Positions 27,885 to 47,619 are shown, counted from the first letter of the stretch. The stretch: 64,000 nucleotides of DNA from Desulfomonilia bacterium (GCA_963664325.2 CAXXDQ010000007.1:576001-640000), one strand, 5' to 3'. Made by a program: numbers and translations. Notes: generated by a model from the sequence alone, not told the origin.

Positions 27885-28751
27885 TTATTCCTCGCCGTAA
27901 GGCAGCTTACACTCAAAACCAAGGCCTGCAATATATTTGTCATATGCAGTTTTATCACCGATCTTGATATTATGGCTTCCAACCTGCCCTTCAACCGCAG
28001 TATTGCCCTTACCCTTGATCGTATGCGCAATAATCATTGAAGGTTTCCCTTTGACTTCTTTCGCCTTTGTTATCTTATTGGCAATATCGTCCCAGTCATG
28101 TCCCTCCATCTCGAAAACTTCCCAGTTGAATGCTCGCCACTTATCGGCAATAGGCTCCAAGGTAACAACATCGTCAGTGGTACCGTCTATCTGCATCTTG
28201 TTGTAATCGGTTATTGCGACAAGATTATCAACCTTCTTGTGTCCTGCAAACATGGCGGCTTCCCACACTTGGCCCTCATCGCTTTCTCCGTCGCCGACTA
28301 TGCAGAACACATTGTGATTCTTCCTGTCCATTTTTCCCGCAAGCGCAACTCCGAGTGCACATGAAAGCCCCTGGCCTAATGATCCGGCTGTTATGTCTAT
28401 GCCAGGTGTACGTATCTGATCCACATGGCTTGGCAGCCAAGTCCCGTCCTGGTTAAGTGTTGTCAGCCACTGCATCGGGAAATATCCTCGATAGGCAAGT
28501 GCAGTATAAAGCACGGGGCCAGCATGGCCTTTTGAAAGTATCAGCCTGTCGCGGCCGTCCCACCTTGGCTCTTTCGGATTAACCTTCATTATGCGCCAGT
28601 AAAGGCTTATAATAGTCTCGACAAGACTCAGCGCACCCCCGATATGCCCCGAACCGGAACGACATATCATGTCTGTGATGACATACCGGAATTCCTTTGC
28701 AAGCTCATCCGCCTTCTCATTGCTCCATAATTTCAAGAGATCATCGTACAT
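27885..28751 (-). CDS. Transketolase N-terminal subunit
   Basis: SGHIGGALS, DRLILSKGHA, GSLGQGLS and ThDP motif GDGESDEG...DYN. Confidence 0.92.
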   Translation of the reverse strand: MYDDLLKLWSNEKADELAKEFRYVITDMICRSGSGHIGGALSLVETIISLYWRIMKVNPKEPRWDGRDRLILSKGHAGPVLYTALAYRGYFPMQWLTTLNQDGTWLPSHVDQIRTPGIDITAGSLGQGLSCALGVALAGKMDRKNHNVFCIVGDGESDEGQVWEAAMFAGHKKVDNLVAITDYNKMQIDGTTDDVVTLEPIADKWRAFNWEVFEMEGHDWDDIANKITKAKEVKGKPSMIIAHTIKGKGNTAVEGQVGSHNIKIGDKTAYDKYIAGLGFECKLPYGEE

Positions 28752-29129
28752 TATATATCTCCTCTGCTTTAATAATTATAAACCCTGAAAAACTTCTTAC
28801 ATCACAAATCGAATGAATTGTACAGATCGCGTCCGATATCACCATGAATATTTAGATTACCAACCGATGTCATAACAGAACATGATGCCGGGGCGGATTA
28901 AGGCAAGAAAAATTGCTATGGACAACGAGAATATGCCTGTTTGTATGACAAATAACGGAGGCAATTATTGCCCCTTTGAAGGAAAACCAAAATAACACGG
29001 TTTAATACTTTTTTTAAAGAATAATGTCTTGACGAAACATTGCTGAAAGAGTTAATTCCATCCAGACTAAATGATAGAAGCAGTAGAAAAAGCAGTACCT
29101 GATAAATCATAGTTTAAGGAGATTACACC

Positions 29130-30320
29130 ATGTCGAAATCAGATACTCCGCTTCTGGATGAACTCGAAGAAGGCAAATGGCCCAGTTTCGTCAAGGAAAT
29201 CAAGCAGGCAGCCAAAAAGAACCCCATGTCAGAAGATCTTCTCAAGCAGCTCGAACTCTCATACAAAGACAAGATCGGACACTGGAAGCATGGAGGCATA
29301 GTTGGCGTCAAGGGCTATGGCTCAGGCGTCATCGGCAGATATACCGACCGGCCCGATCTCTTCCCCAATGTACAGGCATTTCATACCATAAGAGTAAACC
29401 ATCCGGCCGGCTGGTTCTACAAAACCGATGCACTGAAAACCCTTTGCGATATATGGGATAAGCACGGCAGCGGGCTCACGAATCTTCATGGATCAACGGG
29501 AGACGCCATTCTTCTGGGAACGACAACCGATCACCTTCAGCCCTGTTTCAATGATCTGTCTGAGGCAGGCTTTGATCTCGGCGGTTCCGGTTCGGCACTC
29601 AGGACACCGAGCTGCTGCGTCGGACCGGGCCGCTGTGAATGGGCATGCGTCGACAGCCTTGATCTTTGTTACAATCTGACGATGAGCTTCCAGGATGAGA
29701 TCCACCGCCCAATGTTTCCATACAAGTTCAAGATCAAGATATCAGCATGTCCGAACGACTGTGTGGCATCTATTGCAAGGTCGGATTTCTCGATCATCGG
29801 AACCTGGAAAGGAAATATCGGCATCGATCAGACGGAAGTCAAGGCCTATGCCGAATCAGGACTGGATATTCAAAAGGAAGTCTTAAACCTGTGCCCGACC
29901 AGATGCATGGAATTAGAAGGTAATATACTGAAAATATACGATGAAGACTGCACCCGGTGCATGCACTGCATAAATATCATGCCAAAGGCGCTGAGACCCG
30001 GCGATGAACGGGGAGCAACCATCCTGGTCGGAGGAAAAGCCCCCATAGTCGAGGGTGCGCTCATGTCCTGGGTTCTTGTGCCATTCATGAAACTGGAACC
30101 TCCATACGACGAACTAAAAAATCTTATACTCAAGATACAGGACTGGTGGAGCGAAAACGGCAAGTCGCGCGAGAGGCTGGGTGAACTTATAAAAAGACTG
30201 GGAATGCGCCCGTTCCTCAAGGCAATGGATCTTCCAGCGGCTCCACAGATGGTCAAGGCCCCGAGGACAAACCCATATGTCTTTTTCTGGCCTGAAGACA
30301 TTCAGAAGGAGGAGAAGTGA
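29130..30320 (+). CDS. dsrA: Dissimilatory sulfite reductase alpha subunit
   Basis: [30 protein letters not shown], siroheme motifs [13 protein letters not shown] and CTRCMHC. Confidence 0.97.
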
Positions 30321-30321
30321 T

Positions 30322-31383
30322 ATGTCAACGGATATAGGGACCCCCGGATTTCAAATCCATGATCCCGCCAGTTGTTCAGAGGAATTACGGGAAATGGCGT
30401 TACCACGAAATTCCAAGACCCGGAGTTCTGGTCCATGTTTCAGAGTCGGGAGAAGAACTATATTCGGTAAGGGCAGGTTCACCGCGCCTTCTTTCAACTG
30501 ATACTATCCGTGAAATCTGTGAAATTGCCGATGCCTACTGCGAAGGATACCTCCGCTTCACAAGCCGGCATAACATAGAGTCCCTTCTTTCCGACAAGAG
30601 CAAGCTGGAACCACTCCTGGCTGAACTTCAGAAGAGGAACTACCCTGTCGGCGGAACAGGGACATTCCATATCGAACATCGTCCATACCCAGGGCTGGGT
30701 GCATTGCCACACGCCGGCCACTGACGCATCAGGCCCGGTAAAGGCGCTCATGGATGAGATTTATGAATATTTCGTAACCATGACGCTCCCGGCGCATGTC
30801 AGGATCGCGCTCGCCTGCTGCCTTAACATGTGCGGCGCCGTCCATTGTTCCGATATCGCCATTCTGGGCATACACCGTACTGTTCCCCAAACCTGACAAC
30901 TCGCGTGTTCCCAACATGTGCGAGATTCCGACCACTATCGCATCATGTCCAACAGGAGCCATCCGCGGTGACGTGAAGAACAAAACCGTCACCGTCAACG
31001 AAGAAAAGTGCATGTACTGCGGAAACTGCTATACAGTCTGCCCGGCCATGCCTATTGCAGATCCTGACAACGACGGAATATCAATCTGGGTGGGCGGCAA
31101 GGTGTCCAATGCACGCAGCAAACCGGCATTCTCAAAACTGGCCATCCCGTACCTTCCCAACAATCCGCCCAGGTGGCCTGAGGTTGTTGACGCGGTAAAA
31201 AATATCATCGAGGTATATGCATCTCATGCCAGAAAGCATGAGCGGATTGGCGAGTGGATTGAACGCGTGGGATGGGAGAGGTTCTTCAGCCTTACAGGCA
31301 TCCCGTTCACTGATATGCATATAGATGATTTCGACATGGCTACGGAAACATTCCATACATCCACTCAGTTTAAATGGAGGTAA
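30322..31383 (+). CDS. dsrB: Dissimilatory sulfite reductase beta subunit (three +1 frameshifts)
   Basis: Fragments read [37 protein letters not shown] and [12 protein letters not shown]. Extra bases sit at 30337-9 (G), 30659-61 (G) and 30885-8 (C). Confidence 0.93.
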
Positions 31384-31385
31384 TG

Positions 31386-31610
31386 ATGGCTGATGATCTG
31401 AAAGCTAAGATGGTTGAAGCCTTCCGTGAAAAGTCAAAGGGCGACAAGAAGATGTTTTACATCCGTGATGTCACAAAATGGTTTCCCGATGAGGACCGCC
31501 ACGCCGTTCAGGACGCAGTCAAGGCTCTTATCGATGAAGAAGTCCTGAAGTACTGGTCCAGCGGTTCATCAACCTACATCGTTCTTGCAGAATATTTCTC
31601 GGAATCATGA
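31386..31610 (+). CDS. dsrD: DsrD
   Basis: KMFY...LIDEEVLKYWSSGSSTY motif, directly after dsrB. Confidence 0.92.
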   Translation: MADDLKAKMVEAFREKSKGDKKMFYIRDVTKWFPDEDRHAVQDAVKALIDEEVLKYWSSGSSTYIVLAEYFSES

Positions 31611-31614
31611 GTAC

Positions 31615-33090
31615 ATGACAATGAAAGCGCCGCATTCCCGGATCGTCATTACCGCTTTGCGCGGTGGAGCAGGGAAAACGACGCTTTCGGCAGGCATGCT
31701 TGCAGCGCTTAAAAAAAGGGATATAAAGGCCGCCCCTTTCAAGAAGGGGCCCGACTATATAGATGCAGCATGGCTGTCTTCGGCCTCAGGTCAGGCTTGT
31801 CATAATCTGGATTCCTTCCTCATGGACAGGAAAACAATCCTTTCTTCCTTCATCGGAAATGTTGCAGGCGCAGATATGGCTCTCATTGAAGGAAACCGCG
31901 GCCTTTTCGACGGGATGGATTCCATCGGCACGCACAGCACGGCAGAGCTCGCCAAACTTCTCGCCTCTCCTGTCGTCATGATCATGGACTGCGATAAGGT
32001 GACACGCACCGCAGCTGCGATGATACTGGGATGCCGTATGCTTGATCCGGATGTAGACTTCCGTGGAGTCATCCTCAATCGGGTGTCCGGAAACCGTCAT
32101 GAAAGCATATTGAGAAAAACGATCGAGGAGACCTGCCGTCTGCCTGTTATTGGCGCTGTCCCCAGGATGAAGGATTTCCCGTTTCCTCAAAGGAATCTCG
32201 GCCTGACGCCCCCGCAGGAACACTCGCAGATGCAATATGCCCTTGAAAAGGCTTCCGTTGTGGCCGAAAAATACATTGACCTTGATATGATCATCTCGAT
32301 TGCATCCCAGGTATCAGGTGCCATTGAAGCAGACATGCCCGCTTTCCAACGGATGAAACCGACAGGTACGAAAATAGGCGTTTTACGGGATTCCGCCTTC
32401 CAGTTCTATTACCCGGAGAATATTGAAGCACTCAAGGAAAGGGGCATTAAAATGATCGACATCAGTCCCCTAAGCGATAAAGTTCTGCCGGATATCGACC
32501 TTCTTTACATCGGCGGGGGCTTTCCTGAAACTCACGCCGAGGCTCTTGCTGAAAATGCAGTTTTCAGGACATCCCTGCGTGAAGCAGCAGAAAAAGGACT
32601 CCCCGTTTATGCTGAGTGCGGAGGCCTGATGTACCTTGGAGAAAATCTTGTGATTGGAAGCAGAGAATATCCCATGGCAGGCCCCTTGCCGGTATCCTTT
32701 GCTATGGTCGACAAGCCCCAGGGACACGGATATACGGACATCGATGTCGTGGCGGAAAACCCATTCTTTCCGGTAGGTGCCAATATAAGAGGCCACGAGT
32801 TTCATCATTCGAAGATAGTCTCTTTAGATGAGAGACAAATCCGTTTTGCCTTCAGGATGAATCGCGGAACCGGTGTCGACGGTATCAGGGACGGCCTGTG
32901 CAGAAAACAGATTCTTGCAGGCTACACGCATATTCATGCCCTGGGAACACCTGAATGGGCCGACGCACTTATCTTGAGGGCTGACGAACACCGAAAACAG
33001 AAAACGAAGACTGAGTTCAGACTAACAAAACATCCTATGAACACAGAATATATTAACAGGTTTAGTACCTCGAGACCCATACAACAATAA
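31615..33090 (+). CDS. dsrN: DsrN (siroheme amidase, cobyrinate a,c-diamide synthase family)
   Basis: GGAGKT, PFKKGPDYID, IEGNRG and AECGGLMYL, within the dsr operon. Confidence 0.88.
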   Translation: MTMKAPHSRIVITALRGGAGKTTLSAGMLAALKKRDIKAAPFKKGPDYIDAAWLSSASGQACHNLDSFLMDRKTILSSFIGNVAGADMALIEGNRGLFDGMDSIGTHSTAELAKLLASPVVMIMDCDKVTRTAAAMILGCRMLDPDVDFRGVILNRVSGNRHESILRKTIEETCRLPVIGAVPRMKDFPFPQRNLGLTPPQEHSQMQYALEKASVVAEKYIDLDMIISIASQVSGAIEADMPAFQRMKPTGTKIGVLRDSAFQFYYPENIEALKERGIKMIDISPLSDKVLPDIDLLYIGGGFPETHAEALAENAVFRTSLREAAEKGLPVYAECGGLMYLGENLVIGSREYPMAGPLPVSFAMVDKPQGHGYTDIDVVAENPFFPVGANIRGHEFHHSKIVSLDERQIRFAFRMNRGTGVDGIRDGLCRKQILAGYTHIHALGTPEWADALILRADEHRKQKTKTEFRLTKHPMNTEYINRFSTSRPIQQ

Positions 33091-33113
33091 ACAGGAAAAG
33101 GAGATAAACAAAC

Positions 33114-33434
33114 ATGCCGACAATCGAACTAGCAGGAAAAACTTACGAAGTTGACGAAGACGGGTTCCTTCAGGAACTCGATAAATGGAGCGAGGAATTC
33201 GCACAGGCTTATGCGAGCGCAGAGGAAATCGAAGGAACACTGACCGAAGACCACTGGAAAGTGATCAACTACCTCAGAAATTATTATCATGAATTCGGAA
33301 TTGCGCCAATGATCCGGAAGATATGCAAGGATTTGAAAATCGATATGAAAAAGCTCTATGAGCTCTATCCCACCGGCCCAGCCAAGGGTGCATGCAAGCT
33401 TGCAGGCCTTTCAAAACCGACGGGTTGTGTATAA
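33114..33434 (+). CDS. dsrC: DsrC sulfur carrier
   Basis: VDEDGFL and C-terminal GACKLAGLSKPTGCV with both conserved Cys. Confidence 0.96.
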   Translation: MPTIELAGKTYEVDEDGFLQELDKWSEEFAQAYASAEEIEGTLTEDHWKVINYLRNYYHEFGIAPMIRKICKDLKIDMKKLYELYPTGPAKGACKLAGLSKPTGCV

Positions 33435-33455
33435 AAAAGCCTCACAGAAAGAGAC

Positions 33456-34391
33456 ATGGGAACGCTGATCATAGTTCTGACGTATATCGCTTACGTCTTC
33501 ATCGTGGCGGTATACACAATCAAGGTCAAAGCATGGCTCAAGCTCCCGCCTCATATCAGGTGGGACCTCTATCCTGTCATTCATGAGAAAAACTACCGTT
33601 ACGGCGGCTCATACTATGAAAATCAGGAGTGGTGGACAAAACCCCGTCCGAATAACACCATGCGAAGCCTTCTTTACTCACTCAAAGACAACTTCTACAT
33701 GGGTGAGTATTTTAAGCGGAACCGTCTGTACTGGCTCTTCCTCCTGCCGTGGCATCTCAGTTTCATCTTCATTATAGGGTTTCATATTCTGTGCTTCTTT
33801 GCAGCAGTGAGTATGGCTGCTGGTCTGGATATCTCCACAAGCTCAGCCAATGCGGCGGGGCAGGTCTTTTATTACGTCCTTCTGATTATGGGTGGATTCG
33901 CCTTCATCACAGGCACATTCGGAAGCATAGGAATGCTTTTCATGCGGCTTATTGACCGTGGGCTGAGAGTATATTCCATGCCGATGAACTTCTTCAATTA
34001 CATCTTCTTTCTTATCGTCTACGGAAGCGGGCTCATATCCTGGCTGCTCCTCGACCCCACACTCAATGAATACCGGTCGTACTGGCTAGGACTTATCACG
34101 CTGACTGCGCCGTGGCTTCAGCCAATGACTATTTTCCATATCGTCATGTTCGATATCTTTCTCATATATCTGCCCTTTACCCGCTCGACACACTACATCA
34201 CCAGAATCCTGGCATATTTCTATATCCGATGGGACGACGAACCTAACCTTCCCGGCAGTAAGATGGAAAAGCAGTTCAGCAGCCTTCTCGGACACAGGCT
34301 GTCATGGGAAGCAAAACACATCACTGCCGGAAAGAGCTGGGCGGAATCTGCCATGGAATCGGGTCTGGCTGATGTGAAAAAGGACCAATAA
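33456..34391 (+). CDS. Additional DsrM-like membrane cytochrome b (NarI family)
   Basis: RWDLYPV, heme His motifs (PWHL...FHI; FHI...THY) and 5-6 TM helices. Confidence 0.8.
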   Translation: MGTLIIVLTYIAYVFIVAVYTIKVKAWLKLPPHIRWDLYPVIHEKNYRYGGSYYENQEWWTKPRPNNTMRSLLYSLKDNFYMGEYFKRNRLYWLFLLPWHLSFIFIIGFHILCFFAAVSMAAGLDISTSSANAAGQVFYYVLLIMGGFAFITGTFGSIGMLFMRLIDRGLRVYSMPMNFFNYIFFLIVYGSGLISWLLLDPTLNEYRSYWLGLITLTAPWLQPMTIFHIVMFDIFLIYLPFTRSTHYITRILAYFYIRWDDEPNLPGSKMEKQFSSLLGHRLSWEAKHITAGKSWAESAMESGLADVKKDQ

Positions 34392-35995
34392 TGAAGAAGC
34401 CGCTTGATATAAAAGAATTCAGCAGGCCCTCTGAACAGCTCGCCGAAATAGACCCGGCTGAACTGCTTGATCTGCCGGCCCCTTATGACAAGATCGACAA
34501 GCCGCCCATAAAAAAGCTTACGGATGACCAGAAGAAGCGCATGGACGCATCATTGGACGGCGTTGTGGCCGTAGGCCTTGCCCCCCCCAACAGTCCTGAA
34601 GAAGAGAAGGCCTTTGTTGAAAATTTTCTGGCAGGTCTCAATAAGCTCTTTTCCGATCAGGACAACTGGACATTCCTCCAGCCCCTGGTGCACACCTTGG
34701 AGTACTGCGTAAAGTGCCAGATATGCTCTGACGCCTGCCCTGCATACGTATCAAGCGGCCGCCAGGAAATTTACCGGCCCACTATGCGGCCGGAAATTCT
34801 CAGGAGGATTGTAAGTACATATATTAAAAAGGAACCGCGCCTATTGAGGAAATTCAAGTCCAGCGACATAGAGCTCAACTGGCAGACGCTCGCCCGCCTT
34901 GTCGAACTCGCCTACCGCTGCACGCTGTGCCGGCGTTGCGCACAGGTGTGTCTTCTGGGCTGCGATAATGCGCTTGTCACCCGCGAAATAAGGAAACTGT
35001 TCAGCCAGCAGATGGGGATCGCTCCTAAAGAAATTCATGAAAAGGGCTCAGTCCAACAGATCAGGGTCGGATCGAGCACGGGCATGACACCGCCTGCTCT
35101 TAAAAATATCCTCGAGTTCATTGAAGAAGAGATTGAAGAGAAGACCGGCCGCAAGATAAAGATACCAGTTGATAAAAAAGGCGCAGACATGCTGCTTCTG
35201 CATAATGCAGGAGAATTCATGGCATGGCCCGAGAATCTCGAGGCCTTCGCCATCCTTTTTGATGCGGCGGGCGTAGACTGGACCCTCTCCAGCGAACTGG
35301 CAGGATACGACGCAGTCAACTACGGCGTCTGGTATGATGATGTCCAGTTCGCACGCGTGGCACTGATACATGCAAAGGCTGCAAAAGCGCTCGGAGTCAG
35401 GAAGATATCCATGGGAGAATGCGGCCATGCGCATAAGGCTATGATTGTCATCGCAGACCGTATACTCACCGGGGATCTTAATATACCGCGCGAAAGCTGC
35501 CTTCCTCTAATGGAAGAGATCGTAACGAGCGGCCGGATCAAGTTTGACCCTTCGAGGAATGCATTTCCAATAACGCTGCACGACCCTTGCAATATGGTGA
35601 GACTGATGGGAATCGTTTCTCCGCAGCGCAAAATACTTTCAAAGATAAGCCCGGATTTCAGGGAAATGGCTCCGCATGGTGTTGAAAACTACTGCTGCGG
35701 CGGCGGAAGCGGATTTGCAATCACTCAGTCGACGAACTTCCCGGACTGGCGGTCATCTGTTTCAGGACGCATGAAAATGAAGCAGATACTCGAAGCCTTT
35801 AAGGACGTGCCCGAACCGGAAGTGAAAAAATATGTCTGCGCCCCCTGTTCAAACTGCAAGGGGCAGTTCAGGGATATGTTCGAATACTATGGAGCATGGG
35901 AAAAATCGGGCATCTTTTATGGAGGACTCGTGGAACTGATCGTCAACGCAATGGCCGACCTCGAAAAGCCCTTTATCCAGTGGGAGTGGCATTGA
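34391..35995 (+). CDS. Additional DsrK-like FeS oxidoreductase (HdrD/CCG domain)
   Basis: CVKCQICSDAC, CTLCRRCAQVC, GECGH, HDPCN, CCGGG and CSNC. Confidence 0.82.
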   Translation: MKKPLDIKEFSRPSEQLAEIDPAELLDLPAPYDKIDKPPIKKLTDDQKKRMDASLDGVVAVGLAPPNSPEEEKAFVENFLAGLNKLFSDQDNWTFLQPLVHTLEYCVKCQICSDACPAYVSSGRQEIYRPTMRPEILRRIVSTYIKKEPRLLRKFKSSDIELNWQTLARLVELAYRCTLCRRCAQVCLLGCDNALVTREIRKLFSQQMGIAPKEIHEKGSVQQIRVGSSTGMTPPALKNILEFIEEEIEEKTGRKIKIPVDKKGADMLLLHNAGEFMAWPENLEAFAILFDAAGVDWTLSSELAGYDAVNYGVWYDDVQFARVALIHAKAAKALGVRKISMGECGHAHKAMIVIADRILTGDLNIPRESCLPLMEEIVTSGRIKFDPSRNAFPITLHDPCNMVRLMGIVSPQRKILSKISPDFREMAPHGVENYCCGGGSGFAITQSTNFPDWRSSVSGRMKMKQILEAFKDVPEPEVKKYVCAPCSNCKGQFRDMFEYYGAWEKSGIFYGGLVELIVNAMADLEKPFIQWEWH

Positions 35996-36003
35996 GGAAT
36001 AGC

Positions 36004-36993
36004 ATGCATCTCACAGCAGCCGTTATCTCAATCCTTATACTGATGTTCCTGGCGGCGGCAGCCGCCTTGATCCCTTACCTTTCATGGCTGCTTGCGGCAA
36101 TCGTGGTCTATGCCGCATTTTTCTTCTTTCTTGCCGGGTTCGTATATCGTGTTATAAGGTGGGCGATCGTTCCCGTGCCGTTCAGGATCCCGGCCACCTG
36201 CGGGCAGCAGAAGTCGCTGACCTGGATCAATGCAAGCCCGATTGAGAATCCGTCAGGAAAGACCGGTGCCTTTTTAAGGATGGCCTCGGAAATCGTTTTT
36301 TTTCGCTCTCTTTTAAGGAATACGAGTACGGCGATGTACGAAAACCGGCCTGTTTATACAAGGGATATAATACTGTGGCTGTTCGGACTGCTCTTTCATG
36401 TATCCATGCTGATAATAGTAATAAGGCATTTGAGATTTTTCATGGAACCCGTTCCTGTTTTCATCAATACTCTTTCCGCATTGGACGGCATGTTTGAGCT
36501 GGGCGTTCCAACCCTTTATCTTTCGGACATCGTTTTTGCATTTTCGGCAATATACCTGTTCATACGCCGAGCTGCCGTTTCAAGGCTGCGGTATATATCG
36601 CTTGTCCAGGATTACTTTCCCATTCTTCTTCTTATCAGTGTGGCTGGCTCGGGAATACTGATGCGCCACATCTACAAGGTAGACCTTCTGAAGGTAAAAG
36701 AACTGGCAACCGGATGGACCAGTTTCTCAACAACGTTGCCTGAAGGGATAGGCCCGCTATTTTTTGTACACCTGTTCTGCGTATGCATGCTTTTTTTCTG
36801 GTTTCCCCTGGGAAAGCTCCTGCACATGGGCGGAATCTTTTTAAGTCCGACCCGAAACATGGCCAACAGCAACAGGGCATTCAGGCACCTCAACCCGTGG
36901 AATGCGCCCGTCAAGGTCCACACCTACGAAGAATACGAGGACGAATTCCGTGACAAGATAAAAGCGGCCGGGCTGCCGGTGGAAAAGGAGTAG
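36004..36993 (+). CDS. dsrM: DsrM membrane cytochrome b
   Basis: PVPFRIPATCGQQKSL, FHVS...RHLRFF, GKLLHMGGIFLSPTRN and EDEFR. Confidence 0.92.
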   Translation: MHLTAAVISILILMFLAAAAALIPYLSWLLAAIVVYAAFFFFLAGFVYRVIRWAIVPVPFRIPATCGQQKSLTWINASPIENPSGKTGAFLRMASEIVFFRSLLRNTSTAMYENRPVYTRDIILWLFGLLFHVSMLIIVIRHLRFFMEPVPVFINTLSALDGMFELGVPTLYLSDIVFAFSAIYLFIRRAAVSRLRYISLVQDYFPILLLISVAGSGILMRHIYKVDLLKVKELATGWTSFSTTLPEGIGPLFFVHLFCVCMLFFWFPLGKLLHMGGIFLSPTRNMANSNRAFRHLNPWNAPVKVHTYEEYEDEFRDKIKAAGLPVEKE

Positions 36994-36995
36994 AC

Positions 36996-38609
36996 GTGTC
37001 GTTCGCTAAAACACCCAAACCTGATGAACTGATAAGCATCAAATACGGCATGCCGAAGAAGCCATGGATGGACACGCCTGCGGACTTCAAGCCGGGTACA
37101 TGGAGCTATTCAGGCGCGGCAAAGAACCTTACGGCCCTCGATCTTCCCAATCCCAGGACATGGCAGCCTTCGGATGAAGACTGGAAGCTCCCTGAAAACT
37201 GGCAGTCAATCATACTTGAAGGAATGAAGGAACGGCTCGGAAAGTACAGGTCATTCAGACTGTTCATGGATATATGCGTTCGATGCGGGGCCTGCGCCGA
37301 CAAATGCCATTTCTTTATCGGCACCGGCGATCCGAAGAATATGCCGGTGCTGAGAGCAGAGCTTATCCGCTCTGTTTATCGCCGATATTTTACTGTTTCC
37401 GGAAGGGTCTTTGGCCGCTTAGCGGGTGCAAGAGACTTGACCGTCGACGTCTTGAAGGAGTGGTTCTATTATTTCTATCAATGCACGGAATGCCGACGCT
37501 GCGCCGTCTTCTGCCCTTTCGGCATAGACCAGGCCGAGATCACAATGATAGGCAGGGAACTTCTCAATCTGGTGGGCTGCAATATAAACTGGGTCGTAGA
37601 ACCCTCCGCAAACTGCTTCAGGACCGGAAACCATCTCGGCATACAGCCGGGCGGCATCAAGGACATGATTGAATTCTTGACAGATGATATCGCAGACCGG
37701 ACCGGTGTCCGGGTGGAAGTACCACTCAACAGAAAGGGTGCAGAAATCCTGTTCATAACTCCATCTGCAGACTATTTCGCCGACCCGGGCACATATACCT
37801 GCATGGGATATCTCATGCTCTTTCATGAGATAGGTCTTGACTACACGATGAGCACATACGCTTCCGAAGGAGGAAACTTCGGGCTCTTCACGTCGCATGA
37901 TATGATCAAGCGGCTCAATGCAAAGATATACGCTGAAGCAAAGCGCCTGGGCGTCAAATGGATACTTGGTGGCGAATGCGGCCACATGTGGAGGGTGGTC
38001 AACCAGTATATGGACACCATGAACGGACCGGCCGATTTTCTTGAAGTGCCTGTCTCACCCGCAACAGGGACGCGATTTGAAAACGCCCGATCCACAAAGA
38101 TGGTCCACATCTGCGAATTCACGGCAGACATAATCAAAAACGGCAAAATCAGACTCGACCCTTCGAGAAACGGCCATCTGAAGATTACATTCCACGACTC
38201 CTGCAATCCTTCGCGGGCCATGGGTCTCTTCGATGAGCCGCGCTATATCATCAATAATGCATGCAACAATTTTTTTGAAATGCGTGAGGATGCCATTAGG
38301 GAAAAAACATTCTGCTGCGGTGCAGGCGCCGGGCTAGGCAATGAAGAGAATATGGAGATGAGGATGCGCGGCGGCATGCCCAGGGCAATGGCCGTAAAGG
38401 AAGTACGCGAGAAATATGGCGTCAACCGCCTGGCCTGCATATGCGCCGTTGACCGGGCTACACTCCCTCCTCTGATGGAATACTGGGTTCCCGATGTCTC
38501 AGTCATGGGCGTTCACGAACTGCTGGGCAACGCCCTTGTCATGGAAGGCGAAAATGAACGGCTTACCGACCTCAGGGGAGATCCCATTAAGGAGACAGAG
38601 GCGTCATGA
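36996..38609 (+). CDS. dsrK: DsrK
   Basis: CVRCGACADKC, CTECRRC, GGECGHMWR, HDSCN and CCGAG. Confidence 0.93.
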   Translation: MSFAKTPKPDELISIKYGMPKKPWMDTPADFKPGTWSYSGAAKNLTALDLPNPRTWQPSDEDWKLPENWQSIILEGMKERLGKYRSFRLFMDICVRCGACADKCHFFIGTGDPKNMPVLRAELIRSVYRRYFTVSGRVFGRLAGARDLTVDVLKEWFYYFYQCTECRRCAVFCPFGIDQAEITMIGRELLNLVGCNINWVVEPSANCFRTGNHLGIQPGGIKDMIEFLTDDIADRTGVRVEVPLNRKGAEILFITPSADYFADPGTYTCMGYLMLFHEIGLDYTMSTYASEGGNFGLFTSHDMIKRLNAKIYAEAKRLGVKWILGGECGHMWRVVNQYMDTMNGPADFLEVPVSPATGTRFENARSTKMVHICEFTADIIKNGKIRLDPSRNGHLKITFHDSCNPSRAMGLFDEPRYIINNACNNFFEMREDAIREKTFCCGAGAGLGNEENMEMRMRGGMPRAMAVKEVREKYGVNRLACICAVDRATLPPLMEYWVPDVSVMGVHELLGNALVMEGENERLTDLRGDPIKETEAS

Positions 38610-39049
38610 AGCCAAAGCCTGGAACAATTATAGGCGTTTCTATCGGCATAGCTGTATTCGTCCTCATTGCGGCCTTTCCCTTCTGGTATGGCGGCTTTAA
38701 ACCCAAGGCCGCCCCGGATATAGATCTCAATACACCTGAAATAAACTCACTTTCCGAAAAGCAGTGCGTGGCTTCCACAGCTTACATGAAGACAGAACAT
38801 ATGAGGCTCCTCAATCAGTGGCGCAACGATGTCGTGCGCAACAACGACCGGACTTATACAGCACCCGACGGACGGCGGTTCGACAAAAGCCTCACAAAGA
38901 CTTGTCTTGCATGCCACACCAACAAGGAGCGGTTCTGCAACCGCTGCCACAATTATGCCGGCGCCAATCCCAAATGCTGGGACTGCCATTCCGAAACGGC
39001 TTCCTCGGCTGCGAGAAAGGCGATAAAATTCAGGGAAAAGGTGAACTGA
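38606..39049 (+). CDS. dsrJ: DsrJ triheme cytochrome c
   Basis: Three CxxCH motifs (CLACH, CNRCH, CWDCH) and HMRLLNQWR. Confidence 0.93.
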   Translation: MKPKPGTIIGVSIGIAVFVLIAAFPFWYGGFKPKAAPDIDLNTPEINSLSEKQCVASTAYMKTEHMRLLNQWRNDVVRNNDRTYTAPDGRRFDKSLTKTCLACHTNKERFCNRCHNYAGANPKCWDCHSETASSAARKAIKFREKVN

Positions 39050-39050
39050 C

Positions 39051-39818
39051 ATGGTGGACATTAAACGCAGACTGATATTGAAGGCCGCCGGGATATCCGC
39101 TCTCGGCACCATTATTCCGCCTGTCGGGTATCTGATCTCTGCGCATGCAAAGGAAGTCATGTCGAAACAGGCAGCACCGTCTGCAAAACGGTGGGCCATG
39201 CTGGTTGACATCTCGAAGTGTCCGGCAGGATGCAGAGGTTGCATCGATGCCTGTCACGGCATCCACAATGTGCCGTCAATAAACGAGCCCGGACAGGAAA
39301 TAAGATGGATACAGAAGGTGCCATTCTCAAACGCCTTCCCTTCGCAGGAAAACCCCTACTCGGACGTATCCATTAAGAAAAGGGAAACCGTGGTCATGTG
39401 CAACCACTGCAGTAATCCTCCCTGCGTACGTGTCTGCCCGACACAGGCCACGTTCAAGCGCAGTGACGGCATAGTCATGATGGACTATCACAGGTGCATA
39501 GGCTGCAGGTTCTGCATAGCGGCCTGCCCTTACGGCGCAAGGAGCATGAATTTCAGAAACCCCCGGCCGTATATCGGAAGCATAAACCCGGACTTCCCTA
39601 CAAGGACCAAAGGCGTGGTCGAAAAATGCAACTTCTGCGAGGAGCGCCTCGCCAGGAATCTCCTGCCCGCATGCGAGCAAGCATGCAAATACAAGGCCCT
39701 CATATTCGGAGACCTGCTGGCGGGAAAATCGGAAATCAAAACGATACTTGAGAACAGCAATGCGTTCAGGCGCAGACCCGAACTCGGAACAGAACCTCAC
39801 GTATTCTACATAGGATGA
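39051..39818 (+). CDS. dsrO: DsrO periplasmic FeS protein
   Basis: Tat-like KRR signal, CNHCSNPPCVRVCP, CIGCRFCIAACP and KCNFC. Confidence 0.93.
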   Translation: MVDIKRRLILKAAGISALGTIIPPVGYLISAHAKEVMSKQAAPSAKRWAMLVDISKCPAGCRGCIDACHGIHNVPSINEPGQEIRWIQKVPFSNAFPSQENPYSDVSIKKRETVVMCNHCSNPPCVRVCPTQATFKRSDGIVMMDYHRCIGCRFCIAACPYGARSMNFRNPRPYIGSINPDFPTRTKGVVEKCNFCEERLARNLLPACEQACKYKALIFGDLLAGKSEIKTILENSNAFRRRPELGTEPHVFYIG

Positions 39819-39831
39819 AAAGCGAGCTACA

Positions 39832-41019
39832 ATGACTGATCCCACAGATAAAAACAGGATCACAGGCCGTATCTGGCTGGTTTTTCTGATTGCTGTCATG
39901 GCGGTCGGAGGGTTCTTCTATCTGCGCCAGTTGAACATGGGCTTAAGCATTACCGGCATGAACCAGAACGTGACCTGGGGCCTCTATATCTCCCAGTTCA
40001 CATTTCTCGTAGGCATCGCAGCTTCAGCAGTAATGCTCATACTTCCCTATTATCTCCATGATCACAAAGTATTCGGCCGGATTACGCTGTTAGGAGAATT
40101 CCTCGCCGTCTCCGCTGTCATGATGTCCGTCACTTTTGTTATAGTCGATCTCGGACGTCCTGACCGCGCATTCAACATGATCCTTCACCCATCCCCCAAG
40201 TCTATTCTTTTCTGGGATATGATCGTGCTGTCAGGCTATCTGATAATCAACCTCATCATCGGATGGACGGTTCTGGAGTGCGAGCGAAAGGGAACGCCTC
40301 CCCCGTCATGGGTCAAACCGCTAATATACCTGTCAATTCCCTGGGCCATAAGCATACATACCGTAACAGCCTTCATATACGCGGGCCTGCCTGCAAGGAC
40401 CTTCTGGCTTACGGCTGTCATGGCGCCCCGCTTCCTGGCGTCGGCGTTCGCATCAGGCCCTGCCCTTCTCGTACTCCTGTGCCTGATTCTTCGCCGATAT
40501 ACCTCATTTGATGCAGGCAGAGAACCCCTTCAGACACTGGCGAAGATTATCGCCTATGCCCTTGCGACAAGCATCTTTTTCGTCCTTGTGGAAATCTTCA
40601 CGGCCTTCTACAGCGGCATTCCATCCTATAAGGAGCATTACCAGTATCTGTTCAGAGGTATTGACGGCCATATGACCCTTGTCCCCTGGATGTGGGCATC
40701 GGTCGTCCTGGCATTCACAGCACTTATCTTTCTTGTCATTCCCGCAACCAGACGGAATGAAAAGTGGCTTATGTCAGCCTGTATCGCAGTATTCATATCG
40801 CTGTGGATTGAAAAGGGCCTGGGTCTTGTTATTCCAGGATTCATTCCATCACCGCTTGGAGATGTTGGAACATACGTCCCCACAATGCCGGAAATTGCAA
40901 TCACTCTCGGAGTCTGGGCCGGAGGCCTCTTTGTTCTGACCCTCTTGTACAGGCTGTTTGTTGCAGTCAAGGCGCAGCATGTCAAGGCTGCTCTGTGGTT
41001 AAATTATTGGGGAGAATGA
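39832..41019 (+). CDS. dsrP: DsrP (NrfD family membrane protein)
   Basis: WGLYISQFTFLVG, DLGRPDR and HTVTAF; about 10 TM helices. Confidence 0.93.
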   Translation: MTDPTDKNRITGRIWLVFLIAVMAVGGFFYLRQLNMGLSITGMNQNVTWGLYISQFTFLVGIAASAVMLILPYYLHDHKVFGRITLLGEFLAVSAVMMSVTFVIVDLGRPDRAFNMILHPSPKSILFWDMIVLSGYLIINLIIGWTVLECERKGTPPPSWVKPLIYLSIPWAISIHTVTAFIYAGLPARTFWLTAVMAPRFLASAFASGPALLVLLCLILRRYTSFDAGREPLQTLAKIIAYALATSIFFVLVEIFTAFYSGIPSYKEHYQYLFRGIDGHMTLVPWMWASVVLAFTALIFLVIPATRRNEKWLMSACIAVFISLWIEKGLGLVIPGFIPSPLGDVGTYVPTMPEIAITLGVWAGGLFVLTLLYRLFVAVKAQHVKAALWLNYWGE

Positions 41020-41022
41020 AAC

Positions 41023-42249
41023 ATGAAAATACTGACCCTGAACTGCGGCAGCTCATCAATCAAATTCAAGATTTTTTCAATGCCTAAAGGCTCTGCTCTT
41101 ATAAAAGGGCAGGCTGACCGTATAGGACTGGATGATGCAAAAATACAATGGGAAGGCGAAGAGATCAAACATTGCAGCATCAGTTATAAACTTCACAGCC
41201 ACAAAGAGGCGCTCGAAATATTGCTCGGACTCAGGACGGCGGGAGGCGAAAAATCCCCTGTAAACACCGGTGACATAGCGGCTGTTGGGCATCGCGTTGT
41301 ACACGGTGGGGAGTTTTTCCACTCGTCAGTCGCCATCACCCCTGCCATACGCAGAACTCTGGAAGGCTGCAGAAATCTCGCCCCGCTGCATAATCCACAC
41401 AACCTCACAGGAATTGACGTCTGCGCAGCACTTATCCCGGATGTACCGCAGGTAGCGGTTTTTGATACGGCCTTTCACCAGAGCCTTCCTGATTTCGCAT
41501 ATACCTATGCCGTACCATACAGATTTTACGAGGAAAACCGAATCAGGAAATACGGATTTCATGGAACTTCGCATAGATATGTCGCAGAACGCGCAGCACA
41601 GATCCTGGGCAGGGACATTAAACAGCTTAGAATCATCACCGCGCACCTCGGCAACGGATCAAGCCTTTGTGCAGTTGGAAACGGGAAATCATGCGACACA
41701 TCGATGGGTTTCACACCGCTTTCAGGCGTTGTCATGGGAACCAGATGCGGTGACATTGATCCCGCATTCGTAGCCTATCTTATTAAAAATATGAACTTAC
41801 CCCTTGAAGAAGCAATGCGCATACTCAATTATGAAAGCGGAGTACTGGGGATTTCGGGCCTTTCATCGGATTTCAGGGACCTTTTTTCAGCTGCGGAAAC
41901 GGGCCATCAACGGGCGGCTCTTGCACTTAACGTCTTCGCATACAGTGTGGCAAGAGGGATCGGGTCTTTAATCCCTTCCATTAACGGCCTTGATGTTCTC
42001 GTGTTCACCGCTGGCATCGGCGAAAATTCTTATCAGATGCGCCAACTGATCTGCGGTTATCTGTCATGGCTGGGTATCTGTCTGGACCCGGCCAAGAACA
42101 TACAGGGAACGCCGGAACGAGATGTTTCCAGTCCTGAAACACAGGTACGGGTCCTCGTCATACCCACGGACGAGGAAAAAATAATTGCACAGGAAACCAT
42201 GAGCATCCTCACAAATGGAGGACAGCCAACATGTCAGGATGGATTTTGA
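41023..42249 (+). CDS. ackA: Acetate kinase
   Basis: LNCGSSSIK, GHRVVHGG, DTAFH, HLGNGSS, FTAGIGEN and PTDEE. Confidence 0.96.
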   Translation: MKILTLNCGSSSIKFKIFSMPKGSALIKGQADRIGLDDAKIQWEGEEIKHCSISYKLHSHKEALEILLGLRTAGGEKSPVNTGDIAAVGHRVVHGGEFFHSSVAITPAIRRTLEGCRNLAPLHNPHNLTGIDVCAALIPDVPQVAVFDTAFHQSLPDFAYTYAVPYRFYEENRIRKYGFHGTSHRYVAERAAQILGRDIKQLRIITAHLGNGSSLCAVGNGKSCDTSMGFTPLSGVVMGTRCGDIDPAFVAYLIKNMNLPLEEAMRILNYESGVLGISGLSSDFRDLFSAAETGHQRAALALNVFAYSVARGIGSLIPSINGLDVLVFTAGIGENSYQMRQLICGYLSWLGICLDPAKNIQGTPERDVSSPETQVRVLVIPTDEEKIIAQETMSILTNGGQPTCQDGF

Positions 42250-42310
42250 TGGCTTTGCTCAATCTCGCCAAGTGAAAAAAAAATAAAAATCAAGAATAGG
42301 AGGAATTAGG

Positions 42311-44050
42311 ATGAAAAAAGTTAAGATGACACCCAGCGAAGCAATTGTCGAAACACTGCTGGCCGAAGGTGTGGATCATGTATGCGGCATTGTGGGATCA
42401 GCCTTTATGGACATGCTGGACCTTTTCCCTGCAGCTGGAATAAAATTCTATCCTGTACGCCATGAACAGAGCGCAGCACACATGGAAGACGCATATTCCC
42501 GTATCACCGGGCGTGCCGGCGTCGTTACCGGCCAGAATGGGCCAGGCATCACCAATATGGTTACATCGGTAGCTGCAGCGAATATGGGACATACACCCCT
42601 TGTAGTCATCTCTCCGTCAGCAGGAACGCCTACAATCGGCTGGGACGGATTCCAGGAATGCGACCAGCTATCAGTATTCAAGGCCATTACCAAGGCTACA
42701 GTCCGCGTACCTCATCCCAAAAGGGCCGCCGACTGTCTGAGGACGGCGTTCAGGATTGCATATGCCGAAAGAGGCCCGGTGCTTTATGACATCCCAAGGG
42801 ATTATTTCTACGGAGAACTTGAAGAGACCATTTTGAAGCCGTCACAGTACAGAGTGGATGCCCGCGGATGCGGCTCAATCGAAAGCTTGGACAAGGCTGC
42901 CCAGCTTCTTTCAAAGGCGAAGAATCCGGTCATCGTTTCAGGCCGCGGCGTGGTCGACTCCAACGGACTTGATGTAATCAAAGCGATCGCCGAGCATCTT
43001 ACTGCACCAGTTGCCGTCACCTATCTTCACAACGACGCATTCTACGGCAATCATCCGATGTTCCTTGGTTCGATAGGATATATGGGATCAAAGGCGGCCA
43101 TGAAGACGCTCTCCAAGGCCGACGTAGTGCTTGCAGTCGGAACGCGCCTTTCGGTTTTCGGGACCCTGCCCCAGTATGACATCAATTATTTCCCGGATGC
43201 GGCAAAAATAATCCAGATCGACATCAACCCGCGCCACATAGCACGCACCCATCCGATTGAAGTGGGCATAATAGGCGATGCTAAGGAGGCGAGCTCTGAA
43301 ATTCTCAAACGGCTGAAAGCTTTGAACAAGGGACGCAAACCTGACGTCAAAAGGCTTGCCGCAATCGCCAAGGAAAAAGACATATGGGAAAAGGAAATCG
43401 TCAAGCTGGCCATGGTGAAGGGAAACCCCATCAACCCGAGAAGGGTTCTGCTCGAGATATCAAAGGCGCTGCCCAAAGACTGTATAGTGACGACCGACAT
43501 CGGCAACGTTTCATCAACGGCCAACAGCTATCTTAAATTCAACGGCGGACGCCAGCATATTGCGGCTCTTACCTTCGGTAACACCGGGTTCGCTTACCCG
43601 GCTGCTCTTGGCGCACAGATCGCAAAACCGAAATCGCCGGTCATCGCCATCATCGGAGATGGTGCCTGGGGCATGAGCCTTCACGAGGTAAGCACTGCCG
43701 TGGAACACAACCTGCCTGTCGTCGCATGCGTGTTCAGGAACACGTGGTGGGGGGCTGAGGCGAAAAACCAGATCGATTTTTATAACAACCGTTTCATAGG
43801 GGTTGACATCCCCAATCCGGAGAGCTTCGCGCCTGTTGCACAGGCAATGGGAGCCCAGGGAGTGCGCGTTGAGCGCGCCGAAGACATTAAGGATGCATTC
43901 CTCTCATGCATCAAGAGCCGCAAGCCTACAGTCCTCGAGTTCGTTGTCGACGGCATGCAGCTCGCCCCTCCGTTCAGAAAGGACGCACTGGCCCTGCCGA
44001 CAAGGTTCCTCAAAAAGTACGACTATCTCGATTACAGAAACTGGGATTGA
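42311..44050 (+). CDS. xsc: Sulfoacetaldehyde acetyltransferase (ThDP-dependent)
   Basis: [52 protein letters not shown] and PPFRKDAL are typical of Xsc. Confidence 0.92.
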
Positions 44051-44088
44051 TGATTCCAGCAGATATCTTAAACGGCCGGTTATAAGAT

Positions 44089-44123
44089 AAAAAGCCGCTT
44101 CCTGATACAGGAAGCGGCTTTTT
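44089..44123. terminator. Bidirectional intrinsic terminator
   Basis: AAAAAGCCGCTTCCTG-ATA-CAGGAAGCGGCTTTTT between convergent genes. Confidence 0.85.
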
Positions 44124-44143
44124 CATATAGCAATGAAATTCTG

Positions 44144-46260: not shown

Positions 46261-47619
46261 TTATTCAACTTCGGCGTCTGCAACGAGCAGCGCCTTGTCA
46301 AATACCTCCACTGCAAAGTCGATTTCGTCCTTTGTAATGGTAAGGGGCGGCGCGAACATGATCACGCTTGCCACACCGGGCAGGCAGTAGACGCCGTTTT
46401 TCATCGCCTCGGCAAGCACCTTCATCTTGGCAGTAAGAGGTCTCGGCCCTTCGAACAGCATTTCATGCATCGGTTCTTTGGTTCTCCTGTTCTTGACAAG
46501 TTCAAGTCCGACAAAAAGCCCTTTGCCGCGGACGTCGCCGACACACGGATGTTTATCCATAAGTTCAAGCGCCTTTTCCATCAGGTATTCGCCCATTTTT
46601 GCGGCACGCTCTATCAGTCTGTCCTCCTTATAAGCCTCAATGGTTGCAACACCCGCTGCCATGGCAAGGGCATGGCCGCTGTACGTATGTCCGTGTACAT
46701 ATGGAACTTCTTCAAAAATTTTTGAATATTTTTCACTTACGCTTGTCGCACCCAGCGGTACATAACCTGATGTTATGCCTTTTGCCATGGTTATGACATC
46801 GGGAACCACATTCCAGTGCTCAATTGCAAACCATCTGCCGGTACGGCCGAAACCGACCATTACTTCATCCACCATCATTAGCATTTCATATTTGTCGCAG
46901 ATTTCACGTATCTTCTGCCAGTACCCGTCGGGCGGTACGATTATCCCGTTTGCCCCGACCACCGGTTCCGCGATAAAAGCTGCAATCCTTTTGGCGCCGC
47001 CCTCGAACCTGATGACATCCTCGACATGTTTTGCGCACTGCAGGTCGCAACCCGGATAGGTGATTCCAAAAGGACAGCGGTAACAGTAAGGGTCAAGACA
47101 GTGGACAACCCCGGGAATGGCAGGTTCGGTCGACCAGTTCCTGAAATCGTTTGTCAGCGCCATGGCCCCGTAAGTGGAACCGTGATAGCTCCTGAACCGG
47201 GCAATTATCTTCTGCTTGCCTGTTGCAAACCTGGCAACCTTTATGGCACCTTCATTCGCCTCGGCCCCGCTTGTTGAAAAAAAGGTCTTTTTAATGTCGC
47301 CGGGCGTCACCTCCGCAATCAGCCTTGCAAGTCTGGCCTTCGGCTCTGTGGCAAAAGAAGACGAGCACGCGGGCAGCCTTTCCGCCTGAGCCGAAATGGC
47401 CTTTACCACTCGGGGATCGGCATGTCCCAGATTGCTGAATACGAACATGGAGCTGAAATCCAGGTATTTTTTATCCGACGAATCCCAGAAATAATTACCG
47501 GATGCCCTGTCCACAATAACCGGGGTTACAGCCTTCTGGGCGACCCATGGATAAAGGACGTTCTCTTTTTCATATTTTCTTATGGCATCCGCATCAAGTC
47601 TTTCTTTAAATTCTGCCAT
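46261..47619 (-). CDS. Class III PLP aminotransferase, taurine transaminase (Toa/Tpa)-like
   Basis: YLDFSS, SGAEANE, RSYHGST, DEVMVGFGRTG, MAKG, and an N-terminal 'VLYPWVAQ' resembling taurine:2-oxoglutarate transaminases. Substrate is inferred. Confidence 0.8.
   Translation of the reverse strand: MAEFKERLDADAIRKYEKENVLYPWVAQKAVTPVIVDRASGNYFWDSSDKKYLDFSSMFVFSNLGHADPRVVKAISAQAERLPACSSSFATEPKARLARLIAEVTPGDIKKTFFSTSGAEANEGAIKVARFATGKQKIIARFRSYHGSTYGAMALTNDFRNWSTEPAIPGVVHCLDPYCYRCPFGITYPGCDLQCAKHVEDVIRFEGGAKRIAAFIAEPVVGANGIIVPPDGYWQKIREICDKYEMLMMVDEVMVGFGRTGRWFAIEHWNVVPDVITMAKGITSGYVPLGATSVSEKYSKIFEEVPYVHGHTYSGHALAMAAGVATIEAYKEDRLIERAAKMGEYLMEKALELMDKHPCVGDVRGKGLFVGLELVKNRRTKEPMHEMLFEGPRPLTAKMKVLAEAMKNGVYCLPGVASVIMFAPPLTITKDEIDFAVEVFDKALLVADAEVE

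Follow-up and report, generated by a model that had tools for sequence, protein, structure and literature searches.

Why should a run of genes for dissimilatory sulfite reduction end in a gene for acetate kinase and a gene for a desulfonating enzyme? The dsrAB pair is the standard marker for sulfate and sulfite reducers, and many lineages described as syntrophs carry dsrAB without sat or aprAB. The locus examined here belongs to a Desulfomonilia bacterium and lies in a 64,000-nucleotide stretch of its genome (GCA_963664325.2, CAXXDQ010000007.1:576001-640000; called the window below), where the dsr genes are followed by ackA and by xsc, the gene for sulfoacetaldehyde acetyltransferase (Xsc). 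The reading that we prefer, to which we assign a probability of roughly 0.7, is that of a sulfonate-respiration operon, in which a C2 sulfonate, most likely taurine, would be converted into sulfite and ATP, and the sulfite would be respired by Dsr.

A listing of open reading frames (ORFs) combined with NCBIfam and Pfam profile searches revealed fifteen plus-strand genes in one run (29130-44050), in the order dsrA-B-D-N-C, dsrM'K', dsrMKJOP, ackA and xsc (Table 1). Junctions before the end of dsrP are overlaps or gaps of 1-23 bp, and the largest intergenic gap of the whole cluster is the 61 bp between ackA and xsc, where AGGAGG precedes the xsc ATG. Between the dsrP stop codon (41017-41019) and the ackA ATG (41023) there are only 3 bp, and the ribosome-binding site of ackA, GGGGAG, falls inside the 3' end of dsrP. 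Both of these gaps had been reported in the initial annotation of this stretch, and re-reading of the coordinates bore them out, as did folding for the accompanying statement that the first clear terminator follows xsc: the hairpin begins forty bases past the xsc stop codon, and the 85 nt around it fold with -31.3 kcal/mol (z = -5.12; none of 200 shuffles folds equally well). A scan with a terminator consensus was at chance level and omitted this hairpin, and within the cluster the number of hairpin-like matches is not above that in shuffles (23 found, 17.9 +/- 4.4 expected), which leaves the one downstream of xsc as the sole strong terminator. At the other end, a -35/-10-like pair read by eye at about 29030-29058, upstream of dsrA, is a candidate promoter that is not established; a consensus promoter scan of 28000-46500 was likewise at chance level (19 found vs 20.7 expected). 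From the gaps and the terminator we infer that dsrA through xsc would form a single transcript.

Table 1. Coordinates of the features discussed in the text (window positions; for the glycyl-radical enzymes, contig and position in the source genome, G000)
Feature	Coordinates	Strand	Evidence or remark
Intergenic, presumed operon promoter region	28752..29129	.	separates dsrA from the divergent gene for the transketolase N-subunit
dsrA, sulfite reductase alpha	29130..30320	+	TIGR02064, 566.6 bits (cut-off 392.85)
dsrB, beta subunit	30322..31383	+	TIGR02066; three frames in the assembly
dsrD	31374..31610	+	PF08679, 60.8 bits (cut-off 24.2)
dsrN, CobB-type a,c-diamide synthase (siroheme amidation)	31585..33090	+	TIGR00379, 457 bits (cut-off 261)
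dsrC	33114..33434	+	TIGR03342, 117 bits
dsrM'K', second, divergent DsrMK-like pair	33456..35995	+	profile matches below DsrMK level
dsrM, dsrK, dsrJ, dsrO, dsrP, membrane electron-transfer complex	35896..41019	+	all above equivalog cut-offs (in brackets): DsrM NF038037, 443 bits (300); DsrK NF045796, 737 (400); DsrJ NF038038, 156 (100); DsrO NF045797, 300 (200); DsrP NF045798, 452 (350)
ackA, acetate kinase	41023..42249	+	TIGR00016, 456.5 bits (cut-off 293.4)
xsc, sulfoacetaldehyde acetyltransferase	42311..44050	+	TIGR03457, 833.2 bits (cut-off 676.4)
Bidirectional intrinsic terminator	44090..44122	.	15-bp stem between an A run and a U run; common to the convergent gene 44144-46039
Membrane-anchored glycerophosphodiesterase	44144-46039	-	convergent with xsc; neighbours the aminotransferase and lyase-like genes
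Class-III aminotransferase, candidate taurine aminotransferase	46261..47619	-	Toa-like
Pyridoxal phosphate (PLP) enzyme, lyase-like	47626-49053	-	about 52% identical to Symbiobacterium sphingosine-1-phosphate lyase, 389 bits; PLP lysine motif kept
Glycyl-radical enzyme genes	C7:76528-78465, C4:41542-43446, C7:239205-241136, C7:86190-88307		genome G000
Glycyl-radical enzyme genes	C3:409498-411627, C5:38673-40208, C7:866949-869009, C3:416129-418265		genome G000

For the last gene, the initial annotation had named acetolactate synthase as the competing assignment. This alternative failed: the protein that scores 833 bits with the Xsc model reaches only 392.9 bits with the acetolactate synthase model TIGR00118 (cut-off 538.35) and 281-301 bits with pyruvate oxidase models (cut-offs 638-742), and it falls within a well-supported Xsc clade (see below). 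It carries the three domains of thiamine diphosphate (ThDP) enzymes, PF02776, PF00205 and PF02775, and is by family a true Xsc, from which its cleavage activity may be predicted; no solved Xsc structure was found in the PDB, where the best matches are acetolactate synthases (235 bits). Enzymes of the Xsc family convert sulfoacetaldehyde and phosphate to acetyl phosphate and sulfite, while AckA uses acetyl phosphate and ADP to form acetate and ATP. The genome has one xsc above the cut-off, and a genome search identified the ackA of the operon as its only acetate kinase gene, the other match (94 bits) being butyrate-kinase-like.

The genome as a whole (4.31 Mb in 9 contigs, 95.6% complete, 2.2% contamination) was searched with profiles for further enzymes. 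Sat has no match in the genome and the best match to AprA scores 81.6 bits (cut-off 641.75); both are absent in all four genomes of the genus, while in the sister family the AprA model gave 867, 863 and 664 bits in the three genomes used as a positive control. AprA was also not found in two of two chromosomes labelled Smithellaceae in which the module is present. Judging from its gene content, the organism cannot activate sulfate by the usual route. Since Sat and AprA are lacking, dsrAB would here report respiration of sulfite or organosulfonates and not sulfate reduction, which agrees with the earlier suggestion that this dsrAB marks organosulfonate respiration and not necessarily sulfate reduction. 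The absence of pta, also noted at the outset, holds for the window and extends to the genome, in which TIGR00651 gives no more than 27.9 bits (cut-off 311); with no Pta found, acetyl phosphate lacks its usual route to acetyl-CoA. Thus the sole AckA has no partner found that would make acetyl phosphate from acetyl-CoA, yet its gene adjoins that of an acetyl-phosphate-making enzyme.

Analysis of the dsr genes reveals the set of features typical of reductive Dsr systems: DsrD, a DsrC that keeps both conserved cysteines (the second one penultimate), and DsrMKJOP, all above cut-off. The genome-wide profile search detected one dsrA, and one dsrAB copy in all. In the additional pair, M' matches DsrM weakly (21 bits) and K' matches DsrK with 324 bits, under the cut-off of 400; K' is 56-58% identical to the copy adjacent to dsrAB in Syntrophomonadaceae loci. 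Two of the listed starts may need revision: the true start of dsrN may be later than 31585, as the profile match begins at residue 19, and that of dsrM is probably near 36034, as the match begins at residue 47 of the listed ORF.

A complication that the initial annotation had overlooked is found in dsrB, which starts 1 nt past the dsrA stop codon and is broken into three frames. The pieces match TIGR02066 at positions 1-97, 97-176 and 153-341 (135.9, 112 and 244.6 bits), and the protein passes the 341.5-bit cut-off only when the three are summed. Alignment to three congeneric genomes places single-base insertions at about 30337-39, 30659-62 and 30885-88, with dsrA and dsrD free of insertions in the same alignment. 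If these frameshifts were real, Dsr would be dead in this strain, dsrB being a pseudogene and the operon a decaying relic; this would be consistent with three +1 insertions in the only dsrB of the deposited assembly, and with two further single-base insertions (27360 and 27547) in the neighbouring transketolase C-subunit gene. We consider such decay highly improbable. The three extra bases are missing not only from the congeners but also from the contigs of runs X1 and X2 (depths 4 and 8.2; region 29900-31400), which stem from one sample, probably the source of the assembly; the pieces score strongly on the profile and, indels aside, hold no stop in the correct frame, and none of the other 14 cluster genes is broken. 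Because congeners and X1/X2 contigs lack the inserted bases, a true pseudogene was rejected as the leading interpretation, and the frame breaks are most likely consensus errors in the assembly, the five insertions within 3.6 kb having the look of a locally poor consensus. Annotation pipelines will call pseudogenes at this cluster of insertions, in the transketolase C-subunit gene as well as in dsrB.

The association of xsc with dsr genes recurs in other genomes. An Xsc-seeded search in which each species was represented by one genome gave 242 relatives, and the analysis used the best 80 of these; the 45 species loci whose Xsc is at least 83% identical to that of the window are referred to here as the close clade. 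Directly upstream of xsc, ackA is present in 29 of the 38 clade loci that extend at least 1.3 kb upstream, and dsrP lies on the same strand within 4.5 kb upstream in 24 of the 30 loci with at least 4.5 kb, four of which run from dsrP straight into xsc with no ackA between. Among Syntrophomonadaceae/Bacillota loci, with Xsc 71-74% identical, dsr genes are found next to xsc in 4 of 12, and among Desulfovibrionaceae/Mailhella-type loci neither dsrAB nor dsrMKJOP occurs within 10 kb of xsc in any of 23. In a FastTree tree of 122 Xsc sequences (where the label "not linked" includes contigs too short to assess) the window falls inside a 45-row clade with support of 99, together with nearly all copies linked to dsr; the linked copies outside it make up a Syntrophomonadaceae subclade. 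To obtain an unbiased count, we also drew 401 genomes evenly from the phylum and inspected about 19 kb to either side of each Xsc copy: Xsc exceeds the cut-off in 37 of these genomes, and dsr genes lie within about 19 kb of xsc in only three of the 37, one being the window's genome and the other two belonging to family f58.

Nine other Desulfobacterota genomes of the phylum sample (L132-L190) have ackA directly beside xsc and no dsr, and in anaerobes the xsc-ackA pair seems to be a common equivalent of the xsc-pta pairing of aerobes. In the latter, acetyl phosphate is converted to acetyl-CoA by Pta and sulfite is oxidised or exported, whereas in the window's genome no Pta was found, ackA adjoins xsc, and sulfite would be respired; the desulfonating ThDP enzyme of the aerobic clusters, as well as that of Desulfonispora thiosulfatigenes, belongs to the same TIGR03457 family. 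As a separate observation, a recurring gene set is located downstream of xsc (L062 11589-16829, L075 11805-17879, L174 1-9451) in Smithellaceae-type loci and also in an unrelated family (G358). It comprises a short-chain dehydrogenase/reductase (SDR), a second ThDP enzyme whose nearest models, acetolactate synthase and 2-hydroxyacyl-CoA lyase, are both matched below cut-off, a transporter of the major facilitator superfamily (MFS) or the bile acid:sodium symporter (BASS) type, and a second SDR or a zinc-dependent alcohol dehydrogenase, and it sometimes includes a lyase-like gene and ackA. This set is absent downstream of the window's xsc, where the terminator and the convergent Toa-like aminotransferase gene are found instead.

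The distances observed among relatives bear on another interpretation, according to which the adjacency is a scar of horizontal insertion and ackA-xsc, on a regulated promoter of its own, has no functional connection to dsr. About 1.7 kb separate dsrP and ackA in several relatives (L004, L005, L046, L050, L063 and L067, where dsrP and xsc are about 3.0 kb apart), and in L080 the dsr operon is inverted beside ackA-xsc, all of which would suit such a history. In the window, however, dsrP and ackA are 3 bp apart, with the ribosome-binding site of the second gene inside the first, the cluster contains no terminator-like hairpin above chance, and the genome offers no other identified source of sulfite and no other use for Dsr, as Sat and AprA were not found. 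We therefore regard an unconnected insertion as quite unlikely and retain the single sulfonate-respiration operon.

According to the latter, taurine would be converted to sulfoacetaldehyde, probably by the Toa-like aminotransferase encoded nearby, Xsc would split sulfoacetaldehyde with phosphate into acetyl phosphate and sulfite, and AckA, the sole acetate kinase, would turn acetyl phosphate into acetate with the gain of ATP. DsrAB, DsrC and DsrD would then reduce sulfite to sulfide, with electrons delivered via DsrMKJOP and the extra DsrM'K'. With xsc and ackA placed behind dsrP and before the single terminator, the source and the sink of sulfite would be made together, and exposure to toxic sulfite would be limited. 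The initial annotation had likewise proposed that the operon couples generation of sulfite, substrate-level ATP synthesis and sulfite reduction, a coupling that the gene identities, the absences and the conserved linkage support at the genomic level; all computational checks on the refuting conditions named in that annotation favored the idea. The same genes could alternatively serve fermentation or detoxification, Xsc and AckA providing ATP and Dsr merely disposing of toxic sulfite with no conservation of energy. Anaerobic taurine fermentation based on Xsc is indeed known from Desulfonispora thiosulfatigenes (PMC10507020), the labels of the relatives with this module are those of syntrophic, fermentative lineages, and the nine genomes with ackA-xsc and no dsr point the same way; yet the energy-coupling set, from the two-cysteine DsrC and DsrD to DsrMKJOP, is complete above cut-offs and is accompanied by an extra DsrMK pair, 13 dsr genes for detoxification alone seem costly, and the six-electron reduction of sulfite fits the role of an electron sink in a syntroph. 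On balance we judge this alternative unlikely and sulfonate respiration the better account.

In order to trace the origin of the module, we compared its distribution and similarities with the taxonomy of its hosts. The window's order consists of one family with 52 species genomes in 14 genera, and both Xsc and DsrA are above cut-off in all four genomes of its own genus and in none of the 48 elsewhere in the order. The sister family of the same class has matches to the Xsc model in 10 of 70 genomes (above the cut-off in 9), with proteins only about 50% identical to that of the window, and no dsr gene was found near these xsc copies in the fetched stretches, which covered mainly the upstream side. 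DsrA of the window is 84% identical to that of f58, 69% to that of a Syntrophomonadaceae metagenome-assembled genome (MAG), and 61-62% to that of the sister family of its own class; the corresponding values for Xsc are 83-89% (f58/Smithellaceae-type), 74% and about 50%. The housekeeping protein TrmD, in contrast, is 45-47% identical to f58/Smithellaceae-type and 50% to the Syntrophomonadaceae MAG, and the genome of locus L003 combines a 48% identical TrmD with an 89% identical Xsc. Smithellaceae-type loci share the order dsrC-M'K'-MKJOP-ackA-xsc, with DsrK 81-87% and DsrC 79-92% identical, whereas the order and class of the window's genome are different ones, the module being confined there to a single genus, its own. 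As DsrA and Xsc are far closer to the Smithellaceae-type proteins than to those of class relatives, horizontal acquisition is suggested, and the simplest reading would be that the whole module of about 15 kb was acquired from, or is shared with, Smithellaceae-type syntrophs.

The candidate taurine aminotransferase has as its best solved relative a taurine:2-oxoglutarate aminotransferase (6JIX, 330 bits, the next being 278; about 45% identity by eye). Each of the four genomes of the genus has such a gene a short way downstream of xsc, the other three being 74-76% identical, and a 76% identical aminotransferase is found inside a tight co-directional xsc cluster of L066, together with a GntR regulator, a fusion of an FAD-oxidase with GcvT, two amidohydrolases and an MFS transporter, which looks like an operon for utilisation of a taurine derivative. 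That the window's enzyme supplies sulfoacetaldehyde from taurine is thus probable, although not secure.

Several observations weigh against the sulfonate-respiration operon. There is no dsr gene near xsc in 5 of the 30 assessable loci of the close clade (L009, L066, L069, L071 and L075), and therefore the linkage is not obligatory. The deposited dsrB is out of frame, and its intactness rests on low-depth contigs (4x and 8.2x) of one sample and on relatives. On the supply side, no sulfonate transporter was identified near the operon, and G021, a genome of the same family with neither Xsc nor DsrA, has a 51% identical homologue of the aminotransferase that follows a lyase-like gene, so that the aminotransferase-lyase pair may serve another pathway. 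Some of the acetyl phosphate might be taken by a butyrate-kinase/phosphotransbutyrylase-like pair, in which the 27.9-bit match to the Pta model adjoins the 94-bit butyrate-kinase-like gene. Finally, there may be a second source of sulfite: the genome has at least eight genes for glycyl-radical enzymes, none of which reaches a known equivalog cut-off, those for sulfonate enzymes included, and the comparison with IslA covered the two best of them, among which IslA was not seen (344-368 bits against the IslA structures 7KQ3 and 5YMR, and far better matches to glycerol/diol dehydratase or PFL2). Regarding the same group of enzymes, one gene (L094, 1113 aa) appears to have an activase domain fused in frame to the radical-enzyme domain, and one of those on C3 is interrupted by a TGA codon.

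The aminotransferase gene is preceded on its strand by the lyase-like gene, which we examined as a further feeder. Its assignment as a cysteate or sulfinoalanine decarboxylase was rejected, since the match to MfnA is only 118 bits vs 389 bits for sphingosine-1-phosphate lyase. A more speculative idea is that the enzyme cuts a 2-amino-3-hydroxy-1-sulfonate such as capnine or cysteinolate into taurine and an aldehyde. In favor of this sulfonolipid route, Xsc is present in 12 of the 44 lyase-positive and 25 of the 357 lyase-negative genomes of the phylum sample (odds ratio 5, Fisher p = 2e-4, uncorrected for relatedness), and the lyase-like gene adjoins or clusters with xsc in G358 and L066; against it, the closest lyase homologues (63-67%) belong to G021 and G027, of the same family and without Xsc, and only 2 of the 12 genomes with both lyase and Xsc have the two genes within 19 kb of each other. 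In L066 the lyase-like gene also overlaps one for a PPDK_N-type ATP-binding protein, which fits a phosphorylated substrate and therefore counts against the idea. All in all we find such a reaction very unlikely.

The rest of the window contains several features of independent interest. A split transketolase is encoded divergently from dsrA, the gene for its N-subunit being kept at that place in two congeners; no other sulfoglycolysis gene was noticed in the window, where no search aimed at a sulfo-transketolase route to sulfoacetaldehyde was made. Further upstream on the minus strand (19343-26342) is a group A6 NADH-dependent [FeFe] hydrogenase (905 bits, cut-off 765), accompanied by hydE, hydG, hydF and aspartate ammonia-lyase, a cluster that fits a hydrogen-cycling anaerobe. 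Two overlapping plus-strand ORFs (10098-11150 and 11065-12492) match positions 3-175 and 392-620 of the neutral ceramidase model, and may be one gene split by an indel or a gene with a divergent middle region. Another ThDP enzyme is encoded on the plus strand as two ORFs, one for the N-terminal and middle part (54703-55542, from about profile position 38) and one for the C-terminal part (55733-56359), and represents a split gene or else a further break in the assembly; its flanks comprise an RpiB-like gene, an inositol-dehydrogenase-like gene and an ADP-forming acyl-CoA synthetase, the latter with 811 bits to the 3-hydroxypropionate-CoA ligase model, below the cut-off.

The metabolic strategy proposed here is known, while the operon architecture, the host range and the apparent mobility are new. 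In Taurinivorans muris LT0009, the route Tpa-Ald-Xsc-AckA feeds DsrAB-DsrC, as demonstrated through growth, transcriptomics and proteomics; the same study reports tpa-xsc in Desulfovibrio MAGs as well as the Desulfonispora fermentation (PMC10507020). Thus, of the contrast drawn in the initial annotation, which considered only Bilophila and its IslA, the difference in the route of C-S cleavage stands, but the combination of Xsc, AckA and DsrAB had already been published for T. muris (PMC10507020). As in that species, Xsc would yield acetyl phosphate and sulfite, AckA would yield ATP, and Dsr would respire sulfite derived from a sulfonate and not from sulfate, here as judged from genes alone; with alanine dehydrogenase encoded on another contig (467.5 bits, cut-off 391.85), Ald, Xsc, AckA and Dsr of the T. 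muris-type route are all present in the genome. The differences are that in the window xsc and ackA form the 3' end of the dsr operon, as in none of the 23 Desulfovibrionaceae/Mailhella-type loci, that the Xsc of those loci is 58-65% identical to that of the window and their xsc-adjacent aminotransferases only 31-38%, the window's aminotransferase being closer to Toa, and that the host belongs to another class, the closest relatives of its Xsc and Dsr carrying syntroph labels and coming from settings other than the gut. Bilophila wadsworthia (Tpa-SarD-IslAB with Dsr) is similar in that an organosulfonate donates sulfite to a reductive Dsr in a bacterium that does not reduce sulfate, and different in that the C-S bond is cleaved by the oxygen-sensitive glycyl-radical enzyme IslA, with no ATP from acetyl phosphate.

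For Smithellaceae, dsrAB has been reported in 53% and 29% of the high-quality genomes of two sister genera, with sat and aprAB undetected (PMC13685792, 2026), and that paper has no mention of xsc, sulfonate or taurine. Life on organosulfonates has been proposed for genomes of peatland Acidobacteria that have dsrAB only (10.1101/197269), a proposal taken up again by a review (PMC10591310) that covers 950 genomes with dsrAB and places "uncultured family-level lineage 6" in Syntrophales. Searching by title and abstract start, we found no publication that describes xsc joined to a dsr operon, and the literature search returned none that pairs Smithella with sulfoacetaldehyde. What the present locus adds is a host from a different order and class, a different downstream context with the Toa-like aminotransferase, and the recognition of the dsrB frame breaks as a likely assembly artefact.

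For lineages of the syntroph type that do not reduce sulfate, the operon offers a concrete, testable answer to the question why they keep dsrAB, and suggests taurine and related C2 sulfonates as substrates for cultivation. It also implies that dsrAB counts from methanogenic or low-sulfate habitats should not be read as sulfate reduction. The discordant similarities suggest that the trait spreads as a unit, which bears on the speed with which sulfidogenesis from organic sulfur may arise in communities. More tentatively, and with odds that we put somewhat below even, dsr-ackA-xsc may be a transferable "sulfonate-breathing cassette" that moves among syntroph-type anaerobes of different classes, is rearranged between phyla, and provides a private electron sink to fermenters otherwise obliged to share H2 or formate. 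If so, its hosts would include the window's genus, Smithellaceae-type Desulfobacterota and Syntrophomonadaceae of Bacillota, which could dispense with a methanogenic partner in oxidising their substrates as long as taurine-like sulfonates are at hand. The long-puzzling dsrAB of syntrophs that do not reduce sulfate would then be explained, and a part of the environmental diversity of dsrAB would report the cycling of organic, and not inorganic, sulfur.

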